Assembly: GCA_964537315.1 (NCBI GenBank)
Contig: CAZIAP010000004.1
Span: 14,509-78,508 of the forward strand
DNA from: an uncultured Gammaproteobacteria bacterium
GTDB lineage: Bacteria; Patescibacteriota; Microgenomatia; Levybacterales; GWA1-39-11
Direction: 5' to 3'
DNA length: 64,000 bases
Below the pieces are notes generated by a model. That model searched no databases. It was not told where the DNA came from and worked only from the letters and a program-made list of their open reading frames with translations. Positions 3,265-64,000 of this stretch are shown here, one piece after another (position 1 is the first letter of the stretch; every line of letters starts with the position of its first letter). The position numbers and the translations under genes were made by a program.

Positions 3265-4449
3265 CTATTTTCCAATTTTAGTCTGCGTTTTTATACTAAA
3301 TTTGTTTATTTTATCAATTAACTCCAGATTTGATTTGTGATCAAAGGTTAAGTTTTTTTCAATTTTTTTCTTTGCATATCGTTCAAATCCCCATAGCCGT
3401 ATTAATCCTCCCTCATCAGGATCGAGGATATTCTCAGCTATGCGTGCGAGTAAGTATTTCGCCTCGTGAAATGAGTTTCCTGGTGATAGATATGCGTTGC
3501 CCCATTGCTCAAACTGTGCCTCGGTTACTTCGATTTGATAACCCATCTTTCTGGAATTTTTGATATTTGAACTAACTGTATTTCGCTGAAAAAAATTTGA
3601 GAAAGTAATGTAATCAACCGGACCAAGCTTTGGAAGTTTTATAAAATTTGGAAGGTTATAGTAGTAATTAATTCCGCAAATAAATGATTTGGCTGGAGCA
3701 ACTTTCTTTCTATCAAGCTCTTTAATTATTTTAACGATTTTAGAAGTATCTCTGGTTTCCGATGAGCTTAGTAAAATTTTTTTATCCGGAAACTTGGTAC
3801 TAATGACTTCAATAACTTTTTCTACATACTCCTCACTTAATCTCAGTTTTAGTTTTCCAAAAGGATTAAATGCCTCATTTTCTGGCTGAATAATTTGTAA
3901 GTAAGATAATTGTTTTTTTGGATAAGTGGATTTGATATCTTCCAATAAATAACTTAAATACTCAATTGATCTTTTTGAGATTTCCGAGTTTACACTTACT
4001 CTGCTTCCTGGTGTTATCAAAAATTTATTTATAAGTGGTAAAGGAATATACTCTTCAGGCCAGCCAAATGTTTTAATCGGTCCTACGTTTAGACATACAC
4101 TTACTTTGTTCGACAAACAATAATCAAGATATGGCTTGTAGTAAGAAAAATCTATCTCTCCATTTTTATTTACAGATTTATTCCACTTTATCCCTAACCT
4201 GATCTCTCTCATTCCGAACTCTTTTACTAATACTTCAAGTATTCTTAGTTTTTCTTCTACACTTGGAGAATACTTATTCTCTTTCTGATACAGTTGATCC
4301 ACAAGATCAGGGGAGTATGAACATCCTATTTCGATTTTTTTAAATTTATCTTTGTATTTTTCCCAGTATTTGTCTAATGACAAATCAGCATTTTGGTGTG
4401 TTCGGTACTGCCGGTAAAAATGAGTAAACCAATCATTAAAGTTTGCCAT
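3265..4449 (-). CDS. hypothetical protein, possible clan GH-A TIM-barrel glycoside hydrolase
   Basis: 394 aa; QPENEAF (NEP-like acid/base motif) and IEVTEAQ (TE nucleophile-like) spaced as in GH-A enzymes; no signal peptide. Confidence 0.4.
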   Translation of the reverse strand: MANFNDWFTHFYRQYRTHQNADLSLDKYWEKYKDKFKKIEIGCSYSPDLVDQLYQKENKYSPSVEEKLRILEVLVKEFGMREIRLGIKWNKSVNKNGEIDFSYYKPYLDYCLSNKVSVCLNVGPIKTFGWPEEYIPLPLINKFLITPGSRVSVNSEISKRSIEYLSYLLEDIKSTYPKKQLSYLQIIQPENEAFNPFGKLKLRLSEEYVEKVIEVISTKFPDKKILLSSSETRDTSKIVKIIKELDRKKVAPAKSFICGINYYYNLPNFIKLPKLGPVDYITFSNFFQRNTVSSNIKNSRKMGYQIEVTEAQFEQWGNAYLSPGNSFHEAKYLLARIAENILDPDEGGLIRLWGFERYAKKKIEKNLTFDHKSNLELIDKINKFSIKTQTKIGK

Positions 4450-4893: not shown

Positions 4894-5907
4894 ATGACGG
4901 AGCATGAAAGCCAATCATCACTCTCTCCAAATGATCACCCAGATATTGAAATTCGAATGGGTACGGATCGTAATGAGACTACAGGAATAGAAAATTATGA
5001 GCTAACTACATCGGGTTTTCTTTTTAACCCTAAAGAAGCATTTTCAATAGCTCATGAACTCAATAAAGATCTTAAAGAAAATGAACGGATAACGCTCGAG
5101 ATATACCCGACTCTTGACCGTGGTATTCTTGGCACAGTTCGCGGAATAGGAGAGAGATTTGGTTATCAACTTCCAATTCCACCAACAGTTGATGAAGATG
5201 CAGTAAGGTCGTGGCAGAAAGAATTCCCACTAGCACAGGTCTCTCGAGTACACCTCCCTTTTAGTTATAACAAGCATGAGCTTCTCACACGGCCTATTGA
5301 TGAAAAAGGTCTTGGAAGAAAAGTACGCTCAATGCCGTGGATTGTGTATTTTGGTGCAGCAACTAATAAAAAAGGTATTGAGCTTGCCCAAGCACTGGAC
5401 GCCGATATTACTGCTCACACTAATGTTGTTGAGGGATTTGCCCAAGACGGAAAACTGGATGAACTAACAGTTCCTGGATTACATGTCCTAGCTGAAAATG
5501 AAATGGAATATGATTCTCCCATTTTGAAAGATAAAAGGGCTATATCTGACCCCATATATATCGCTGAAAATATAGTAGAAAAATATAATCTTGATGGATT
5601 ACTTCTCGGACTTGATCATGCACTTGAACAAGGAGTAGACATACATAAAGTATTAGATACTCCTTCAATACACAAGCATACCCGTGCAATACATCTTGCT
5701 GATGTAAATCATGGAGCAGTCATCACAGGTAATGAACAAATTGAAAAGCTAATCCAACACATAGGTAGAACAACATTTGATCATCCCGTACGCGCAGCAT
5801 TGGACTTAAACCCTCTCGAGTTAGGTAAACTCACAGAACGGGAAAGATTTCAATTAATAAAAAGCACTATCGATTGGATAAAAGATAATCAATATACTTC
5901 TGCGTAA
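4894..5907 (+). CDS. hypothetical protein (338 aa); start moved to ATG at 4894 to avoid overlap with HIT gene
   Basis: Long ORF; 5' part of ORF-track call (4744) overlaps convergent HIT gene; in-frame ATG MTEHESQ at 4894; no recognisable motifs. Confidence 0.5.
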   Translation: MTEHESQSSLSPNDHPDIEIRMGTDRNETTGIENYELTTSGFLFNPKEAFSIAHELNKDLKENERITLEIYPTLDRGILGTVRGIGERFGYQLPIPPTVDEDAVRSWQKEFPLAQVSRVHLPFSYNKHELLTRPIDEKGLGRKVRSMPWIVYFGAATNKKGIELAQALDADITAHTNVVEGFAQDGKLDELTVPGLHVLAENEMEYDSPILKDKRAISDPIYIAENIVEKYNLDGLLLGLDHALEQGVDIHKVLDTPSIHKHTRAIHLADVNHGAVITGNEQIEKLIQHIGRTTFDHPVRAALDLNPLELGKLTERERFQLIKSTIDWIKDNQYTSA

Positions 5908-6011
5908 TACCTCCTCTCTTACTAAGTAAGCATTTACTAATGTGTGTTATAAGATTGCAAAGTAACTTGATAAACTCTAAACTCTAAATACTAATACCTA
6001 AATAATTTTAA

Positions 6012-6362
6012 ATGTTCCAATCTCAAAATACAAAACAATATAATTTGGAGGAGAGAACGTATAGCTTTGCTAAGAACGTGCAGAGATTTGTGAAGGTATT
6101 GCCTAAGACTGTTGCGACTATTGAAGATAGTAAACAGCTCATTCGCTCTTCTGGCTCTATCGCTGCGAACTACATTGAAGCAAATGAAGCGCTTAGCAAA
6201 AAAGACTTCTTAATGAGAGTTAAGATATGTCGCAAAGAAGCTAAGGAAACAAGATTGTGGTTAAATCTTATTGAGGGAGATCATAAGGAAAAAGAAATAC
6301 TTCTCAAAGAGGTGAATGAGTTAATGAAAATATTCGGTTCTATTGTCACAAAATCTGAATAA
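6012..6362 (+). CDS. four-helix-bundle protein (23S rRNA intervening-sequence protein / Avd-like family)
   Basis: 116 aa, pattern RSS.SI.ANI.EG......K.F......KEA.ET..WL characteristic of TIGR02436-type four-helix bundle proteins. Confidence 0.7.
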   Translation: MFQSQNTKQYNLEERTYSFAKNVQRFVKVLPKTVATIEDSKQLIRSSGSIAANYIEANEALSKKDFLMRVKICRKEAKETRLWLNLIEGDHKEKEILLKEVNELMKIFGSIVTKSE

Positions 6363-46385: not shown

Positions 46386-47090
46386 TTAATACCCTGCGAA
46401 GTCTTCTCTATTAATCTTATCATCATTTACACCCAGAGATATAAGCATATTTTCTATTTCATGACCCATATTTTCAGGACCAACTATATAAAACAGAGCA
46501 GATTTCATATCCGGTACATATTGGTTTATTATCTCTACATTGATCCGACCCTGAAAACCTGGCCAATTTTTGTCTTGTGACATATTATGTATAACCTTTA
46601 AGTTAGTAAGGTTTTCTTCAAGCGCCTCTAATTCATCAAAATAAGGTGTGCTGTCTTTTAACTTATTAGAATAAAAAAGAGTTACTGAATTCTCTTTTCC
46701 TGAGTCTTTCATCCACCTCATCATGCTCATAAAAGGGTTTATGCCTATTCCTCCTGCAATAAATACCAGGGGAATATCAGTACTTTCCGGAAAAACTAAA
46801 TCTCCCTCTGGACTGCTTACATCTATCTGACCACCTAACGGTAGGGCATGTAGCTCTTTTTTAAACCCTGATTCTCTTAAACGGGTAGCGACTGAAATTT
46901 TATTTTTCTCTGCAGGAGAACTGGCAATAGTAAAATATCTGCGTGATCCTTGATAGTCAGGGAATTTTGGATTTTTAAAGGTTAAGAATACGTACTGACC
47001 TGCCTGAAACAATATTGGTTCTGATAATTCAAAAGTATATTCAAAAGTTTCAACACACAGTTCTCTTTTATTTATCAATGACCCTACCAT
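46386..47090 (-). CDS. FAD/NAD(P)-binding FNR-like oxidoreductase (paralog of 13224..13943)
   Basis: RYFTIASSP FAD motif, GGIGINPF NAD motif; start codon overlaps stop of zwf-gnd fusion. Confidence 0.75.
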   Translation of the reverse strand: MVGSLINKRELCVETFEYTFELSEPILFQAGQYVFLTFKNPKFPDYQGSRRYFTIASSPAEKNKISVATRLRESGFKKELHALPLGGQIDVSSPEGDLVFPESTDIPLVFIAGGIGINPFMSMMRWMKDSGKENSVTLFYSNKLKDSTPYFDELEALEENLTNLKVIHNMSQDKNWPGFQGRINVEIINQYVPDMKSALFYIVGPENMGHEIENMLISLGVNDDKINREDFAGY

Positions 47091-49480
47091 TACTTTTGAC
47101 TTTTGATTTTTGAGTTTTGACTTTTTATACTGTGCCCTCCAAACTGGTTTCTCAGAGTACTTAATATTTTTCCAGTATAGCTTGGATTTTTTTCTGACTC
47201 TATTCTGAATTGTAATGACTCTTCAATTATCTTGGTTTTTACTTTTAATTCTCTTGCTGCTTCAATCGTCCACGCACCCTCTCCAGTGTGAGCAACTGAG
47301 CCTGAAATTTCAGAAAGATCTTCTCCATAAATTTGCAAACCATTGCGTAACCAACCGATAAGCCGTGATTCAATTACACTTCCGTGATTATATACTTCAG
47401 CAACTTTCGTCAGATCAAGATCATATTTTGACTCTTTTAAGACTGTAAAACCTTCTGCAATTGCTTGCATCATTCCATATTCGATACCGTTATGAACCAT
47501 TTTGACAAAGTGACCTGCTCCTGCACCTTCAAAATGTTCAACTCCTTCGCTTACTGCGATGTCTGTATATAACGGAAGAAGTTCTTCATAGGATTCACGT
47601 GACCCACCCACCATTAGGCAAGCTCCATTTCTAGCACCACCTGGTCCACCTGATACACCAACATCAACAAAATTAATTCTCTCTTTTTCCAGAACTTTCG
47701 CACGTTTCTGTGAGTTTTTATACAATGAGTTTCCAGCATCAATCACAGTATCTCCTTTTTCAAGATACGGCAAAATACCATCACCGCTTAAGAGAGAGTC
47801 CAGAGCGTCTCCTTCAGGCAACATAACCCAGATTATCCTTGGTCCGTCTAATTTTTGCGCTAATTCCTGCAAGGAGTATGCTCCTTTTACTCCCTGTTCT
47901 TCAAAGATTTTAGTAACTTCGCTTGTTCTGTTATATGCAACTACTTCCCAACCTTTTTCGATAAGCCTGGATGCTATATTCCCACCCATTTTTCCTAGAC
48001 CTATGATACCGATCTGTTTTTTAAATTTAGGTGCCAAAGGAATTGCATCTATATATAAAGAGTCTTCAACTGGTTCAAATGTTCGTTTTTTATAGCTTTT
48101 AAGCGGCACTAAATTTTTCTGCCAGGAAAGCCAAATAGGGTCAGTAAATCTCCACATTGCTTTTATTTCATCAGTACTTACAAATAAAAGCTGGTTGCCA
48201 TAAATACAATCAAGTAACAGTTTTTCATACTCTTCTACATACTGTACACGGTCTGTTACATCACGATAATAAAAATTCAAAACTCCGGGAGCAATTCCAC
48301 CATCAAGTCCAGGTTTCTTATTCCAGAAATGGATATTAATCGTCTCTGTCGGCTCAATCCCAATCACGATTTTATTCTGATTATGCTCACCAGGCGGACA
48401 CATACACGGCTCAGGATGCTTTAGTGTTATGACAATTTCTTTGATCTGCTCTGCCATCGATTTACCGCTTTCAAAAGTAATTGGAATATTAGAATAACGA
48501 GGATGTGTAATACTTGTTTTTATCTTAAAGTAAGTTTCGGTTTGTGATTTAGGATCTACTCCTTTTATAGACTTATATCCTTCGTACTGTGCTCTATATG
48601 TATTGTTTTTTATCTGCTCTTCGCTCATCACGGGTAGATAATTTAAAATTTCTGCCCTCTTTTTGCGAACTTGCTCAGGCGAGTTTTCTTTTGGATGTTC
48701 CATGAGAATAAGAGCCAGCATCTGAAGCAAATGATTCTGCCCCACATCCCGCAGTGCGCCTACACCATCATAAAAATCACCACGGTTCTCTACACCCATC
48801 GTTTCGTACAGCTTGAGATGAATACTTTCGATCAATTGATTATTCCATGATTGCTCAAACAGATTATTTGAAAACCTAAAGTTTAAAATATTTTGCAGCA
48901 TCTCTTTTGCCAGATAATGATCAATGCGGTATATTTGTTCTTCCTTAAAAAGCGTACCAAGCATCGTATCCAGCTCTTCTGCAGTTTTCAGGTCTTTTCC
49001 AAACGGTTTTTCAACCAGAACTCTAGTCCAACCCTCTTCAGGACTGCATGGCTCCGTAAGTCCGGAATCAGATAAGTTCTGGAAAATTGATTTATAGTAC
49101 TCTGGAGGAACTGCCAAATAGAATAGCTTATTTGCGCACACATTCCACTGCTTGTCCGCACGACCCAGTGTAACAGCGAGATCTTTATAACTTGCAAAAT
49201 CCTCAAAGTCTCCTGACTGATAAAAAATATGCTGCAAGAACTTTGGAAGATGTTCTTTATTTTCTTCAAAATCCTTCTGCTTTTTGAGTACCGTGGTGAT
49301 ATGCTGACGAAACTCTTCCTCAGTCAATTTTCGTCTAGCAAAACCATAGATTTTGATCATTTGTGGAAGCTTGCCTGCGATAAAGAGGTGAAAGAGAGCC
49401 GGGGCAATTTTTTTAGCTGTAAGATCACCAGTCGCACCAAAAATAACAAATATTGTTGGAAGATTGTGCTTGGTGTTCAC
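47090..49480 (-). CDS. zwf-gnd: bifunctional fusion: glucose-6-phosphate 1-dehydrogenase (N) + short-form 6-phosphogluconate dehydrogenase (C)
   Basis: N-terminal GATGDLT Rossmann and RIDHYLAKE G6PD active-site peptide; C-terminal IGLGKMGGNIA, GVSGGPGGARNG, HFVKMVHNGIEYG motifs of decarboxylating 6PGDH; 796 aa single ORF. Confidence 0.85.
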   Translation of the reverse strand: MNTKHNLPTIFVIFGATGDLTAKKIAPALFHLFIAGKLPQMIKIYGFARRKLTEEEFRQHITTVLKKQKDFEENKEHLPKFLQHIFYQSGDFEDFASYKDLAVTLGRADKQWNVCANKLFYLAVPPEYYKSIFQNLSDSGLTEPCSPEEGWTRVLVEKPFGKDLKTAEELDTMLGTLFKEEQIYRIDHYLAKEMLQNILNFRFSNNLFEQSWNNQLIESIHLKLYETMGVENRGDFYDGVGALRDVGQNHLLQMLALILMEHPKENSPEQVRKKRAEILNYLPVMSEEQIKNNTYRAQYEGYKSIKGVDPKSQTETYFKIKTSITHPRYSNIPITFESGKSMAEQIKEIVITLKHPEPCMCPPGEHNQNKIVIGIEPTETINIHFWNKKPGLDGGIAPGVLNFYYRDVTDRVQYVEEYEKLLLDCIYGNQLLFVSTDEIKAMWRFTDPIWLSWQKNLVPLKSYKKRTFEPVEDSLYIDAIPLAPKFKKQIGIIGLGKMGGNIASRLIEKGWEVVAYNRTSEVTKIFEEQGVKGAYSLQELAQKLDGPRIIWVMLPEGDALDSLLSGDGILPYLEKGDTVIDAGNSLYKNSQKRAKVLEKERINFVDVGVSGGPGGARNGACLMVGGSRESYEELLPLYTDIAVSEGVEHFEGAGAGHFVKMVHNGIEYGMMQAIAEGFTVLKESKYDLDLTKVAEVYNHGSVIESRLIGWLRNGLQIYGEDLSEISGSVAHTGEGAWTIEAARELKVKTKIIEESLQFRIESEKNPSYTGKILSTLRNQFGGHSIKSQNSKIKSQK

Positions 49481-61833: not shown

Positions 61834-62118
61834 CTACTTGCTATCTTCTTTTTCTACCGAGATAGTACACTCGGTAATTAGTGCTGCCATTGCGCCTACT
61901 GCAGCAAGAACCGGTGCGAGTGCCGTACCAAGAACACCAAACGTTAGGGGAAATCGCATCAACTCTTTACCGTTTTTATCAATTATGGTAATTTTACGCA
62001 CATTTCCTTCGTGCAAAAGTTCTTTTACCTTTGAAAGAAGCTCTTCCCCGCTTACTTTAAAGGTTTGCTCTGTAGTTTTTTTAGACTTCTTTGTCGTCGC
62101 CATAAATTTATTATACAC
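61834..62118 (-). CDS. DUF4342-family protein
   Basis: 94 aa, pattern FKVSGEELL.KVKEL...N.R.I.I.D..G.. with C-terminal hydrophobic helix as in DUF4342. Confidence 0.65.
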   Translation of the reverse strand: MYNKFMATTKKSKKTTEQTFKVSGEELLSKVKELLHEGNVRKITIIDKNGKELMRFPLTFGVLGTALAPVLAAVGAMAALITECTISVEKEDSK

Positions 62119-62278
62119 TACACAAAGACTTTTAGCTCCTCCTCCTTATTTCGCCACTTTGCGTAAATAATAATTACTTGTATTCTTAAGATACTAGTAC
62201 TTTTGTAGCCAAAAGTACTATCTTTGCTTACATAGACAAAATATGTCTATAATAATAACATCAGGATTATTTACCCTA

Positions 62279-62307
62279 TTGACAAAAGTCTTATAGTATA
62301 TTATAAT
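62279..62307 (+). promoter_or_regulatory. perfect consensus sigma70 promoter TTGACA-17nt-TATAAT
   Basis: Read directly: TTGACAaaagtcttatagtatatTATAAT; no ORF downstream. Confidence 0.6.
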
Positions 62308-62313
62308 CCTCAA

Positions 62314-63111
62314 ACATTGTGCTTGGTAGGCCTTTTATTTGCAAAAGCCGTCTACAAAAGCACTTGTAAGTACATTAACAAAGGAATACAGGAAAAACTC
62401 TTTTACACATCCGTGTATTTGAGTTGAAAACCTTTACCCCGCTAAGCGGGGTACTCTTTGCTTGATATACTTACAAGCCACATACAGAGGCGCAAATCAC
62501 CAATTGTGCTTCTCTATCTGGCTTGTAGGTTACGGAAATGTTTTCCGTAAGCTCAAGCTTTGGGAAGGAAGGATAGTGGCAAGAAGCCCGCCGTGTACCG
62601 GACTTAGTTCGGTAAGTATAATGAATAATTATATTGGCGCGGCTCAGCCGCTAGAAGAAAGGAAAGAAGATGCGCAAACTGCGTACCTAGTCCAGTAGGA
62701 TTAGAAAAGCATTCGTCGTGCGGTACTGACCGCCATAAGTTGAACGAGAATGCTTTAGTACAGTCTGACTGATGTGCAGACTCCAATGCTCGATATAGCA
62801 AAGGATCATGTCTCCACAGTCAACTGGACACCCTACTGGACACTATGTATGTATATTAGGGAGCCAAATGCTCCCCGGGTACCGGCACCCGTTTACGCCG
62901 ACTAGGGTCAGACCCACAATGATGGGTCTGACCCCATCTATACCGCACTTATCATCCCTTCCTCTCTTTCGTCCGAGGATCGATCCCAATATATACCGAA
63001 AATCTTTTTCGGGATCGGTCCTCCTCGGAGGGGTACTACTTGCATACTAGCAGTACACCCCATCTCCTCCCTCCCTATTCTGGGGGCCTGCACCGCAGGC
63101 CCCCTTTATAT
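62314..63111 (+). ncRNA. candidate large (~800 nt) structured non-coding RNA of unknown class
   Basis: Bracketed by consensus promoter and strong intrinsic terminator; no credible ORF; elevated local GC; >10 perfect GC-rich hairpins. Confidence 0.45.
63082..63111 (+). terminator. rho-independent terminator
   Basis: GGGGGCCTGC-ACC-GCAGGCCCCC (10-bp perfect GC stem) followed by TTTATAT. Confidence 0.7.
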
Positions 63112-64000
63112 AGATAGGTTTTCTATATGAGCACGTCGATCATCGACACCAACTAACAATTGCGTTATGCTTGAGTGTCACACATGAACGTCGAACGTTC
63201 ACGAAATATCCTGTATTCCTTTGATTTCAAATATTTTCTCCTAAATTTATATTTCACTAATAATAATCAACAACTTTTTAACCTTTTAACTCGTTAATAC
63301 TTCACACTTAATTCCCAATACCCAATTCTGCTTTGTAGAGAATTTGCTTTCACATCTAAAGTAGCTTATAATATATAAATTCGCACGCACTGTACACTAT
63401 GCGTATGGACTGCGTGTTTCGTAGAGTTCTTTGACATAAGGAATAGAATTGAAAATTAATTAGGGAATTTTGTAGACAGTCAGGAAGAGATGGAATGCCA
63501 ACATTCCTTTTCCTCTTGACTGTTTGCATTAACGGAGGTGTAAACTCAGACTGGCTTACGAGCCAATTACTATAACCGGCCCTCACCCAGCCGGTTTATT
63601 TCACCCTCCTCTCCCCTTATACCATACATTCAAAGCACCCCCTGCTTTTGTATGGTAGTACAGTTGGCGCAAGAAGCCAGAGAATTACCCCACCCAACAC
63701 ATATATGTTGGAATTCTCGGCTTCTTGGCCTTCTGTATTTTGAATTATCTTTCTTTCTCATAGGTATCATTCCCTGGTTCTGCAAGCATTTTGCGCTTGC
63801 AATAACTATATCTACCGATTGAGTGTAGAAAAATCCCTATTCCTTATGTCATCTTTTTAAGCACTTAAGCTCCTACTATTTTTTTCATTGTTTTATTGTT
63901 TAACCGCCTTAGTGCAACCTCGACTTTCTGTACTGTGAACCATTAACCAAGAACTATTAATATTTATTTTAGTCTTATAGTACTTGACTCGCATCTTGAA

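Follow-up and report, generated by a model that had tools for sequence, protein, structure and literature searches.

A segment of the + strand, from 62279 to approximately 63240, of the 64,000-nucleotide (nt) stretch of contig CAZIAP010000004.1 analyzed here (the whole stretch hereafter being called the window) is probably the gene of a structured non-coding RNA of ~925 nt, which is restricted to a small group of Microgenomates-like Patescibacteria and has the build of a miniature ribosomal RNA (rRNA) operon. That the segment specifies a real structured non-coding RNA on the + strand is very likely, judging from the comparisons below. A preliminary description, made from the letters of the window, had interpreted the region as a promoted, non-coding, structured and unclassified RNA of ~800 nt. 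This much of the interpretation holds, for an RNA of ~0.8–0.9 kilobases (kb), whereas the 3′ end that it assigned and the status of a lone gene do not.

The segment opens with a sigma-70 promoter, P1, which agrees with the consensus at 12/12 positions, as had been recognized at the outset (TTGACA at 62279–62284, a 17-nt spacer and TATAAT at 62302–62307), and which would start transcription near 62314. In the homologous loci introduced below, both hexamers and the spacer core GTCTTATAGTA are kept in L097/L007, L008, L010, and L102, and at the position of the spacer core L087 has ATCTTATAGTC. The reported GC enrichment is real, with a GC fraction of 0.42–0.50 over 62300–63200 versus 0.32–0.40 in the flanks, and every stem previously listed in the hairpin series is found in the sequence. 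Folding of 62314–63115 yields −329 kcal/mol versus −226 ± 5.7 kcal/mol for dinucleotide shuffles (z = −18.2); for the − strand of the same segment, z is −12.1.

The claim that the region lacks credible coding potential was likewise confirmed: over 62119–64000 no open reading frame (ORF) on either strand exceeds 80 amino acids (aa), the ORFs overlap one another, and Pfam gives no meaningful E-value for any of them. The ORF-free stretch does not end at 63111, as had been stated. On the Logan contig L001, which includes the window region and on which the gap was measured, it runs from 62104 to 64168 (2065 nt), bounded by the DUF4342 gene on the − strand, as had been described, and by a 129-aa Cys-rich ORF on the + strand. 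Substitutions between homologues number 58/58/64 at the three codon positions, i.e., without 3-base periodicity, and most insertions and deletions (indels) between them are not multiples of three and thus shift the frame. Small conserved proteins were rejected on the basis of this substitution pattern, the indels, and the Pfam results, as was coding under an alternative genetic code. When TAG is taken as a sense codon, a single frame of the − strand does remain open for 222 codons; however, the longest open run with TGA as sense is 122 codons, the neighboring genes all read normally in code 11, and the lack of periodicity, the frame-shifting indels, and the absence of Pfam matches apply here as well, so that we give this explanation practically no credence.

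The region also matches no known RNA family, as had been suggested. Rfam 15 gives no family at gathering score across the whole window and nothing relevant at E ≤ 10 within 62000–64000, where not even a fragment of rRNA is detected at that threshold. There is no model match in the window for RNase P RNA, transfer-messenger RNA (tmRNA), signal recognition particle RNA, 6S RNA, group I/II introns, rRNA, or transfer RNA (tRNA), and the covariance models of OLE, GOLLD, ROOL, HEARO, raiA, and other large Rfam RNAs match neither the window nor the homologous loci. ARAGORN finds no tRNA and no tmRNA in the window. A group I intron within a tRNA gene, as described for Patescibacteria (PMC13011429), was considered and rejected, there being no intron or tRNA model match in the window.

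The RNA structure was further examined in homologues, which were found via contigs encoding relatives of the neighboring hydrolase and of DUF4342. The syntenic gap beside DUF4342 was recovered from five other species, represented by L007/L097, L008, L010/L011, L087, and L102. The hydrolase is 81% identical in L007/L097, where the DNA of the RNA gene (hereafter unit 1) is ~78–84% identical, 76% identical in L008, and 69% identical in L010/L011; L087 contains a short version of unit 1 and L102 its 5′ part only. Conserved blocks are detected by blastn on the 5′ side (62228–62531) and on the 3′ side (63100–64168), and no similarity for 62532–63099 in L008 or L010. Side-by-side folds nevertheless reveal that this middle part is still homologous: the architecture of the central domain (62559–62904) recurs in L008 and L010 despite the lack of blastn similarity. 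All copies share the junction helix GCUUGA/UCAAGC, the pairing of purine and pyrimidine tracts, the CGAGGA... hairpin, and a terminal GC-rich hairpin, and the full-size copies additionally share the hairpin GGGUCAGACCC/GGGUCUGACCC. The alignments referred to for unit 1 are a five-species alignment of the 5′ domain (A4) and a full-length alignment of five sequences (A8). The parts of unit 1, with the percentages of paired cells in these alignments, are as follows.

62279–62307, + strand: promoter P1, TTGACA-17-TATAAT, 12/12.
62314–62367, + strand: leader hairpin H1, present in the single-sequence fold and corresponding to A4 helix 1 (93% of cells paired, two pairs changed on both sides); it sits where boxB stands in rRNA operons.
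62370–62380, + strand: boxA-like motif GTACATTAACA, overlapping the start of the clamp helix (9/11 matches to GYTCTTTAANA).
62379–62393, + strand: 5′ (leader) strand of the clamp helix, CAAAGGAAUACAGGA, a perfect complement of 63209–63223.
62396–62425, + strand: hairpin H2, A4 helix 2 (4/11 pairs changed on both sides, 91% of cells paired).
62426–62433, + strand: 5′ strand of a second long-range helix, GAAAACC(U), with its partner at 63116–63123.
62435–62453, + strand: hairpin H3, CCCCGC-UAA-GCGGGG (4/6 pairs changed on both sides, from C-G to U-A or G-C; 97% of cells paired).
62456–62558, + strand: three-way junction closed by GCUUGA/UCAAGC and enclosing hairpins H4 (62469–62530) and H5 (62530–62550).
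62559–62904, + strand: central fast-evolving domain with purine tracts (62562–62573 and 62654–62670) and several hairpins.
62905–62934, + strand: hairpin GGGUCAGACCC/GGGUCUGACCC, A8 helix 8, with the same stem in the window, L097, L008, and L010 and with different loops.
62953–63080, + strand: pyrimidine tracts (62953–62970 and 63062–63080), predicted to pair with the upstream purine tracts, and hairpins 62973–63028 and 63030–63061.
63082–63104, + strand: GC-rich internal hairpin, previously described as a terminator, lying within both long-range helices.
63116–63123, + strand: 3′ strand of the second long-range helix, (A)GGUUUUC; GGTTTTCTATA is common to all four full-size homologues.
63134–63207, + strand: tail with hairpins 63134–63148, 63153–63167, and 63185–63201 and the near-invariant CACGAAAU (CAUGAAAU in L008).
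63209–63223, + strand: 3′ (trailer) strand of the clamp helix, UCCUGUAUUCCUUUG; the clamp is A8 helix 1 (98.7% of cells paired).
63224–63240, + strand: U-rich stretch AUUUCAAAUAUUUU, the probable 3′ end of the RNA.

When the window is compared with L007, substitutions cluster in loops and stems change in pairs. Thus, CCCCGC/GCGGGG becomes CCCUGC/GCAGGG and AACUC/GAGUU becomes AACUG/CAGUU in L007, while GGGAGC/GCUCCC becomes GGGAGU/ACUCCC and AAGCAUUC/GAAUGCUU becomes AAGCAUUG/CAAUGCUU in L007/L097. Across the five species of A4, 20/71 pairs of the 5′ domain are changed on both sides, as compared with 9.0 ± 2.0 in shuffles (0/500 as high) and 2–6 in slid controls. Within this domain, H4 has 96% of its cells paired, four pairs changed on both sides, and a conserved UCACCA in its loop, and 5/6 pairs of H5 are changed on both sides. 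From the full-length alignment, RNAalifold derives 114 consensus pairs with 89.6% of cells paired; 33/114 pairs are changed on both sides versus 14.3 ± 2.6 in shuffles (0/500) and 4–13 in slid controls. Helix 10 of A8 (CGAGGAUCGAUCCC...) has three such pairs and 97% of its cells paired. Nine and four of them are found in helices 5 and 9, respectively, which join the purine and pyrimidine tracts and have only 68–83% of cells paired. Homologous non-coding regions with compensatory changes, which the preliminary description had proposed as a check, are therefore present in related species.

The same data indicate the strand. G-U cells exceed A-C cells by 41:19, 30:4, and 28:7, and the alignment reaches a lower folding energy on the + strand (−106.7 kcal/mol) than on the − strand (−95.5 kcal/mol), both of which agree with the orientation of the promoter. 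The conserved G-U pairs of H4 are compatible with the + strand only.

The RNA had originally been thought to end at 63082–63111 in a GC stem followed by a T-tract. This terminator was not borne out, as the stem is followed by only TTT and then ATATAG. A GC-rich hairpin occurs at this position in every homologue, each time with a different stem sequence, and no T-run follows it in L097, L008, L010, or L087. Instead, conservation continues for 120 nt beyond the 63104 stem, in the blocks GGUUUUCUAUA and CACGAAAU and a CUAAC...GUUA hairpin, and the tail hairpins carry compensatory changes (UAAC/GUUA to UAGC/GCUA and, in the third hairpin, A8 helix 11, C-G to G-C). Beyond the tail lies the 3′ strand of the clamp, a perfect helix of 15 base pairs (bp) formed by 62379–62393 and 63209–63223 and spanning 845 nt. 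The unit 1 clamp is invariant in four species, and the L087 variant, GACAAAGGATACAGG, is matched on the other strand, so that both strands are altered there (GACAAAGGAUACAGG with CCUGUAUCCUUUGUC). Nested within it is the second long-range helix, in which GAAAACC (62426–62432) pairs with GGUUUUC (63117–63123). This helix is part of the minimum-energy fold of L097 and L008, lies within 0.1–1.1 kcal/mol of it in L010 and the window, and is recovered by RNAalifold on the full-length alignment; its two strands are jointly absent from the short L087 form. Since the hairpin at 63082–63104 lies inside both long-range helices, it is internal, and the transcript most likely continues to ~63223–63240, giving an RNA of ~925 nt (~62314–63240).

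It could be argued that the transcript does end at the 63082–63111 hairpin after ~800 nt, and that the tail and the right-hand repeat act at the DNA level or are transcribed separately. A terminator scan ranks the 63082–63104 stem first (10 bp, nine of them G-C), the related units of L009 and L090 carry textbook hairpin and T-tract terminators at the equivalent internal position, and the tail contains a weak promoter-like site (63143–63171). However, the missing T-run in the window and in the four homologues, the compensatory changes in the tail hairpins, and the fact that the tail supplies the partners of two helices of the 5′ domain, one of them in the minimum-energy fold of two homologues, speak against this explanation, which we consider unlikely. 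A transcript ending at 63111 is possible as a minor or alternative form.

Unit 1 is not the single stand-alone gene that it was first taken for, but the first of at least two related units in tandem. The elements downstream of it are the following.

63344–63859, + strand: unit 2, a second structured-RNA gene that is related to unit 1 and kept in L008 and L010.
63344–63372, + strand: unit 2 promoter, TTGCTT-17-TATAAT, read from the sequence.
63382–63416, + strand: unit 2 leader hairpin, likewise from the sequence.
63426–63436, + strand: unit 2 boxA-like motif GTTCTTTGACA (10/11 matches to GYTCTTTAANA).
63432–63446 with 63837–63851, + strand: unit 2 clamp of 15 bp, followed by UCUUUUU; perfect in all copies.
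63984–64000 and onward, + strand: third promoter, TTGACT...TATACT, of which the start lies in the window; together with the leader and ORF described below, it continues on L001 at 5688–6260 (− strand of L001).

In the alignment of unit 2, tail included, 15/103 consensus pairs are changed on both sides, and the segment 63112–63990 has a fold z of −8.6. The third promoter is followed by a leader of ~170 nt (GGACCCGUCCAUAAGAGGGGUAAGAACCACCGGAUUU...), which precedes the 129-aa Cys-rich ORF beyond the window end and is kept in L008 and L090. The ORF is without a Pfam domain and its leader without an Rfam match; from its position and conservation, the leader may be a cis-regulatory RNA. Given that this ORF has the same orientation and that no other ORF intervenes, the whole 2-kb region might conceivably be one long cis-acting leader, i.e., the 5′ untranslated region of this ORF. 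This is difficult to reconcile with the presence of three separate conserved promoters and with units that each end in a clamp and U-rich stretch of their own; moreover, L009 has a unit without such an ORF, and in L087 the RNA precedes different ORFs. We therefore regard a single leader as highly improbable.

Over all loci, 13 units were found, each of which has the same order of parts: promoter, leader hairpin, boxA-like motif, clamp helix, and cargo. Their clamps comprise seven sequence variants, each a perfect Watson–Crick helix of 12–15 bp with sharp ends, and span 241–1007 nt. A T-rich run, clear in the copies of unit 2 and weak in unit 1 as well as in some other units, follows most clamps. 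The ~100 bp of clamps in the seven variants include no G-U pair and no mismatch, whereas such pairs are frequent in other parts of these RNAs; a strict requirement for a double strand, for example, at a nuclease site, may be the reason. The units are confined to the syntenic locus, where cassette number and content vary by species. In L087 (3955–5037 and gap positions 2276–2516 in window orientation), two unannotated ORFs of 153 and 127 aa, both without a Pfam domain, sit between the short unit 1 and a very short cassette of the unit 2 type (clamp TGACAAAGGAATAGG, span 241 nt).

The clamps are also the basis for an explanation at the DNA level, according to which the 15-bp inverted repeats are the ends of a non-autonomous transposon or the sites at which an invertible segment recombines. 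Two inverted repeats of 15 nt, both perfect, are very unlikely to arise by chance, both arms change together between species, G-U pairs are missing from every clamp, and several public contigs break in the RNA region. On the other hand, units occur at one syntenic locus only, with no other copy in the 64-kb window, and no recombinase or transposase gene is found among the neighbors. The promoter, leader, and boxA-like motif outside the repeats are conserved along with them, and the promoters lie upstream of the left repeats rather than within, in the same orientation in 13/13 units. A DNA element is therefore very unlikely. More specifically, a miniature transposon with terminal inverted repeats was rejected for lack of dispersed copies and on account of the conservation extending past the repeats, and an invertible promoter switch (inverton) because of the outside promoters, their single orientation in the 13 units, and the lack of a neighboring recombinase. 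Inversion was also rejected as the cause of the contig breaks at 62512–62524. These breaks end a stretch of >31 nt that is identical between co-occurring species, and such identity between species of the same sample is enough to break k-mer assembly at this point.

In two related species, a single unit was found in the gap, and its cargo includes a degenerate tRNA-like element (L009 4856–4931 and L079 8108–8185, both on the − strand). The element ends in an encoded CCA, has a non-standard "anticodon" loop of 6 or 8 nt, and is reported by ARAGORN as "tRNA-???". The Rfam tRNA model scores 50.5 bits for the L009 element and remains below threshold for that of L079. As judged by these features, it is probably a non-decoding tRNA mimic. 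In L090 and L092 the unit is present without it.

Together with the rRNA-operon-like layout, the narrow distribution, and a size and content that vary by species (562–1007 nt), the tRNA-like element, present in the L009 and L079 units and absent in L090, could suggest that the units are decaying relics of an rRNA or tRNA operon, in which the promoter, boxA, and leader–trailer helix are leftovers and a non-functional interior is drifting. A relic would not, however, keep a 12/12 promoter, nor would invariant blocks of 20–40 nt and compensated helices be expected to persist when the hydrolase is only 69–81% identical, and no rRNA fragment is present at E ≤ 10. We therefore consider decay improbable. 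With regard to the distribution, a scan of a genome collection with the neighboring hydrolase gave only two irrelevant distant matches. The 66 matches to the invariant 19-mer AACAAAGGAATACAGGAAA in a metagenome scan are all due to chance, as none otherwise resembles the region, and the two matches to TACAGAGGCGCANATCACC in a scan of viral contigs lie within a phage ORF without hairpin context and are likewise chance.

The reading of the region as a miniature rRNA-operon-type unit depends in particular on the boxA-like motif, scored here as matches to GYTCTTTAANA (PMC5725501) rather than to the host's own rrn boxA. The motif scores 9–10/11 in all 13 units at the same relative position: 10/11 in L008 (GCACTTTAACA), 10/11 in L087 and the unit 2-type copies (GTTCTTTGACA or GCTCTTTGACA), and 9/11 in one exception among the latter, unit 2 of L087 (GTTCGTTGACA). 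It is this conservation of position over 13 units that leads us to interpret the motif, which abuts or overlaps the 5′ strand of the clamp, as a putative boxA. The TTGACA inside it was considered as an internal promoter and rejected, as no consistent −10 element follows across units.

The Nus-factor antitermination complex of rRNA operons depends for its assembly on boxA, which is both necessary and sufficient. The rrn complex resists Rho, and the related lambda N complex resists intrinsic terminators as well. By analogy, boxA on the nascent RNA would recruit NusB/NusE (ribosomal protein S10), and the Nus-loaded polymerase would then resist Rho and the many internal terminator-like hairpins of the untranslated transcript. 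For the rrn complex, it has been suggested that the leader strand is retained at the RNA exit channel up to the emergence of the trailer (PMC10250234, PMC8632103). Similarly, the 5′ strand of the clamp might stay tethered near the exit channel until the 3′ strand emerges, whereupon the clamp would form. Clamp and U-rich stretch would end the RNA, either as base-paired termini protected from nucleases or as a stalk for processing by RNase III; the clamp is thus a candidate mature terminus, terminator stem, or RNase III site. BoxA-dependent antitermination is also known to protect the long non-coding transcripts of CRISPR arrays (PMC7665894). Such a model would explain how a transcript packed with terminator-like hairpins is completed, why the internal GC hairpin need not terminate it, and how a helix spanning 845 nt forms reliably. 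Our best guess for the mature RNA is a stable scaffold that binds proteins or assembles with itself, with the UCACCA loop and CACGAAAU, both predicted to be unpaired, and the helix-forming GAAAACC and GGUUUUCUAUA as its candidate recognition sites.

Several points weigh against the interpretation of unit 1 as a clamped ~925-nt RNA. Only five homologues are complete or nearly so, all of them closely related, and with so few related sequences the shuffle control overstates the significance; in addition, the consensus structure was derived from the same alignment that was used for the covariation counts. The two strongest long-range helices barely vary among the full-size copies, so that their support consists of co-conservation, one compensated variant (L087), and co-loss rather than rich covariation. 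The U-rich stretch after the unit 1 clamp is weak, and the transcript ends are placed from sequence alone. By count, boxA-type matches in the 64 kb are at chance level (one found versus 1.38 expected), the G-U-free clamps could also fit a constraint at the DNA level, and the function suggested for the mature RNA is a guess.

Comparison with known systems helps to define what kind of gene this may be. As in an rRNA operon, a stable-RNA-type promoter is followed by a leader hairpin, a boxA-like motif, a leader strand, structured cargo, and a trailer strand, and the cargo is long, untranslated, and hairpin-rich, of the kind that needs antitermination. The cargo is not 16S, 23S, or 5S rRNA (no Rfam match at E ≤ 10), however, and the unit would therefore work like an rRNA-operon-type transcription unit without being one. 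The details differ too: the clamp is perfect and has 12–15 bp, whereas the leader–trailer helices of E. coli rRNA have 27–44 bp and are interrupted, and the boxA-like motif overlaps the helix strand, whereas rRNA boxA lies 18–19 nt upstream of boxC. A boxA early in a long non-coding transcript outside rRNA is likewise found in CRISPR arrays and suhB (PMC7665894, PMC5725501), but those cases have neither a leader–trailer helix nor structured cargo.

The resemblance to OLE, GOLLD, and ROOL noted in the preliminary description holds for size and hairpin density only; by the covariance models, the RNA is a member of none of these classes. Features shared with GOLLD and ROOL are a length of 0.6–0.9 kb, many helices, no known associated protein, one conserved and one fast-evolving part, location in a GC-rich gap of an AT-rich genome, and a link with tRNA-type elements (PMC12286853), which here takes the form of the tRNA-like module in related units. 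Unlike the phage- and prophage-borne GOLLD and ROOL, this RNA is chromosomal, lies among housekeeping genes of a Patescibacterium, and has clamped termini and a boxA-like motif. With OLE (~600 nt or more) it has in common that it is a large, highly structured, lineage-restricted bacterial RNA with its own promoter, but it differs in the lack of a model match and of adjacent partner genes of the oapA/B/C type, and in the phylum of the host. Finally, the pairing of the 5′ and 3′ ends into a stem and the tRNA-like module of the L009 and L079 relatives recall Y RNA and YrlA. In contrast to YrlA, there is no Rfam YrlA match and no Rsr/Ro gene nearby, the RNA is much larger, and the tRNA-like part of L009 and L079 is a complete cloverleaf with an encoded CCA. 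Within the literature covered, searches revealed no described RNA of this kind in the candidate phyla radiation/Patescibacteria or near DUF4342, and a text search for the boxA-like motif yielded nothing but noise.

Housekeeping genes (rpsB, tsf, frr, recR, dus, and the gene of a class A penicillin-binding protein) surround the RNA locus, without any sign of a prophage, and the named relatives of the neighboring hydrolase are from Candidatus Levybacteria and Microgenomates, which places the host in the Patescibacteria. Between the start of the DUF4342 gene and P1 lies a perfect 11-bp AT-rich hairpin (TAGTACTTTTG/CAAAAGTACTA, 62195–62220), followed by TCTTTGC. Located at 3964–5464 of L001 are genes for a metallophosphoesterase (242 aa) and for a nucleotidyltransferase-like protein (249 aa, with a weak Aminoglyc_resit/NTP_transf_5 match in Pfam). 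The pair flanks the RNA locus in 6/6 long syntenic contigs (L001, L009, L010, L079, L087, and L090) and is missing from L084 and L086, both of which are without the RNA locus and DUF4342. This could indicate a functional link to the RNA or merely shared ancestry; Pfam searches with these two neighbors and the 129-aa ORF gave no functional lead. Elsewhere in the window, an ORF of 796 aa (47090–49480, − strand) fuses glucose-6-phosphate dehydrogenase and 6-phosphogluconate dehydrogenase domains according to Pfam, an unusual fusion.

As judged from these comparisons, we rate the RNA as a new large structured family that is produced from a cassette resembling an rRNA operon and has a known range of five or six closely related species. 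To our knowledge, very few bacterial RNAs of >500 nt exist beyond rRNA, RNase P RNA, tmRNA, OLE, GOLLD, and ROOL, and each newly found large bacterial RNA has led to new biology. Patescibacteria account for a considerable part of bacterial diversity, and in genomes as tiny as theirs 2 kb of non-coding DNA comes at a high cost. More tentatively, and leaning slightly against rather than for it, we consider that unit 1 may be the founding member of a new class of ornate RNAs of ~0.9 kb native to Patescibacteria chromosomes. Such RNAs would be made from a modular "stable-RNA cassette" with promoter, boxA, and leader–trailer clamp borrowed from rRNA operons, into which different genomes would have loaded a large RNA, a 400-nt RNA, or a tRNA-like module, and the mature RNA would be catalytic, protein-organizing, or a self-assembling particle of importance to these host-dependent bacteria with reduced genomes. 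If boxA has been read correctly, the antitermination and RNA-chaperone machinery of rRNA synthesis would be reused for other large folded RNAs, and the leader–trailer clamp would be a portable device for making large RNAs. Further genes could then be sought by their signature: a promoter, a boxA, and next to come, one strand (the 5′ one) of a perfect long-range helix.

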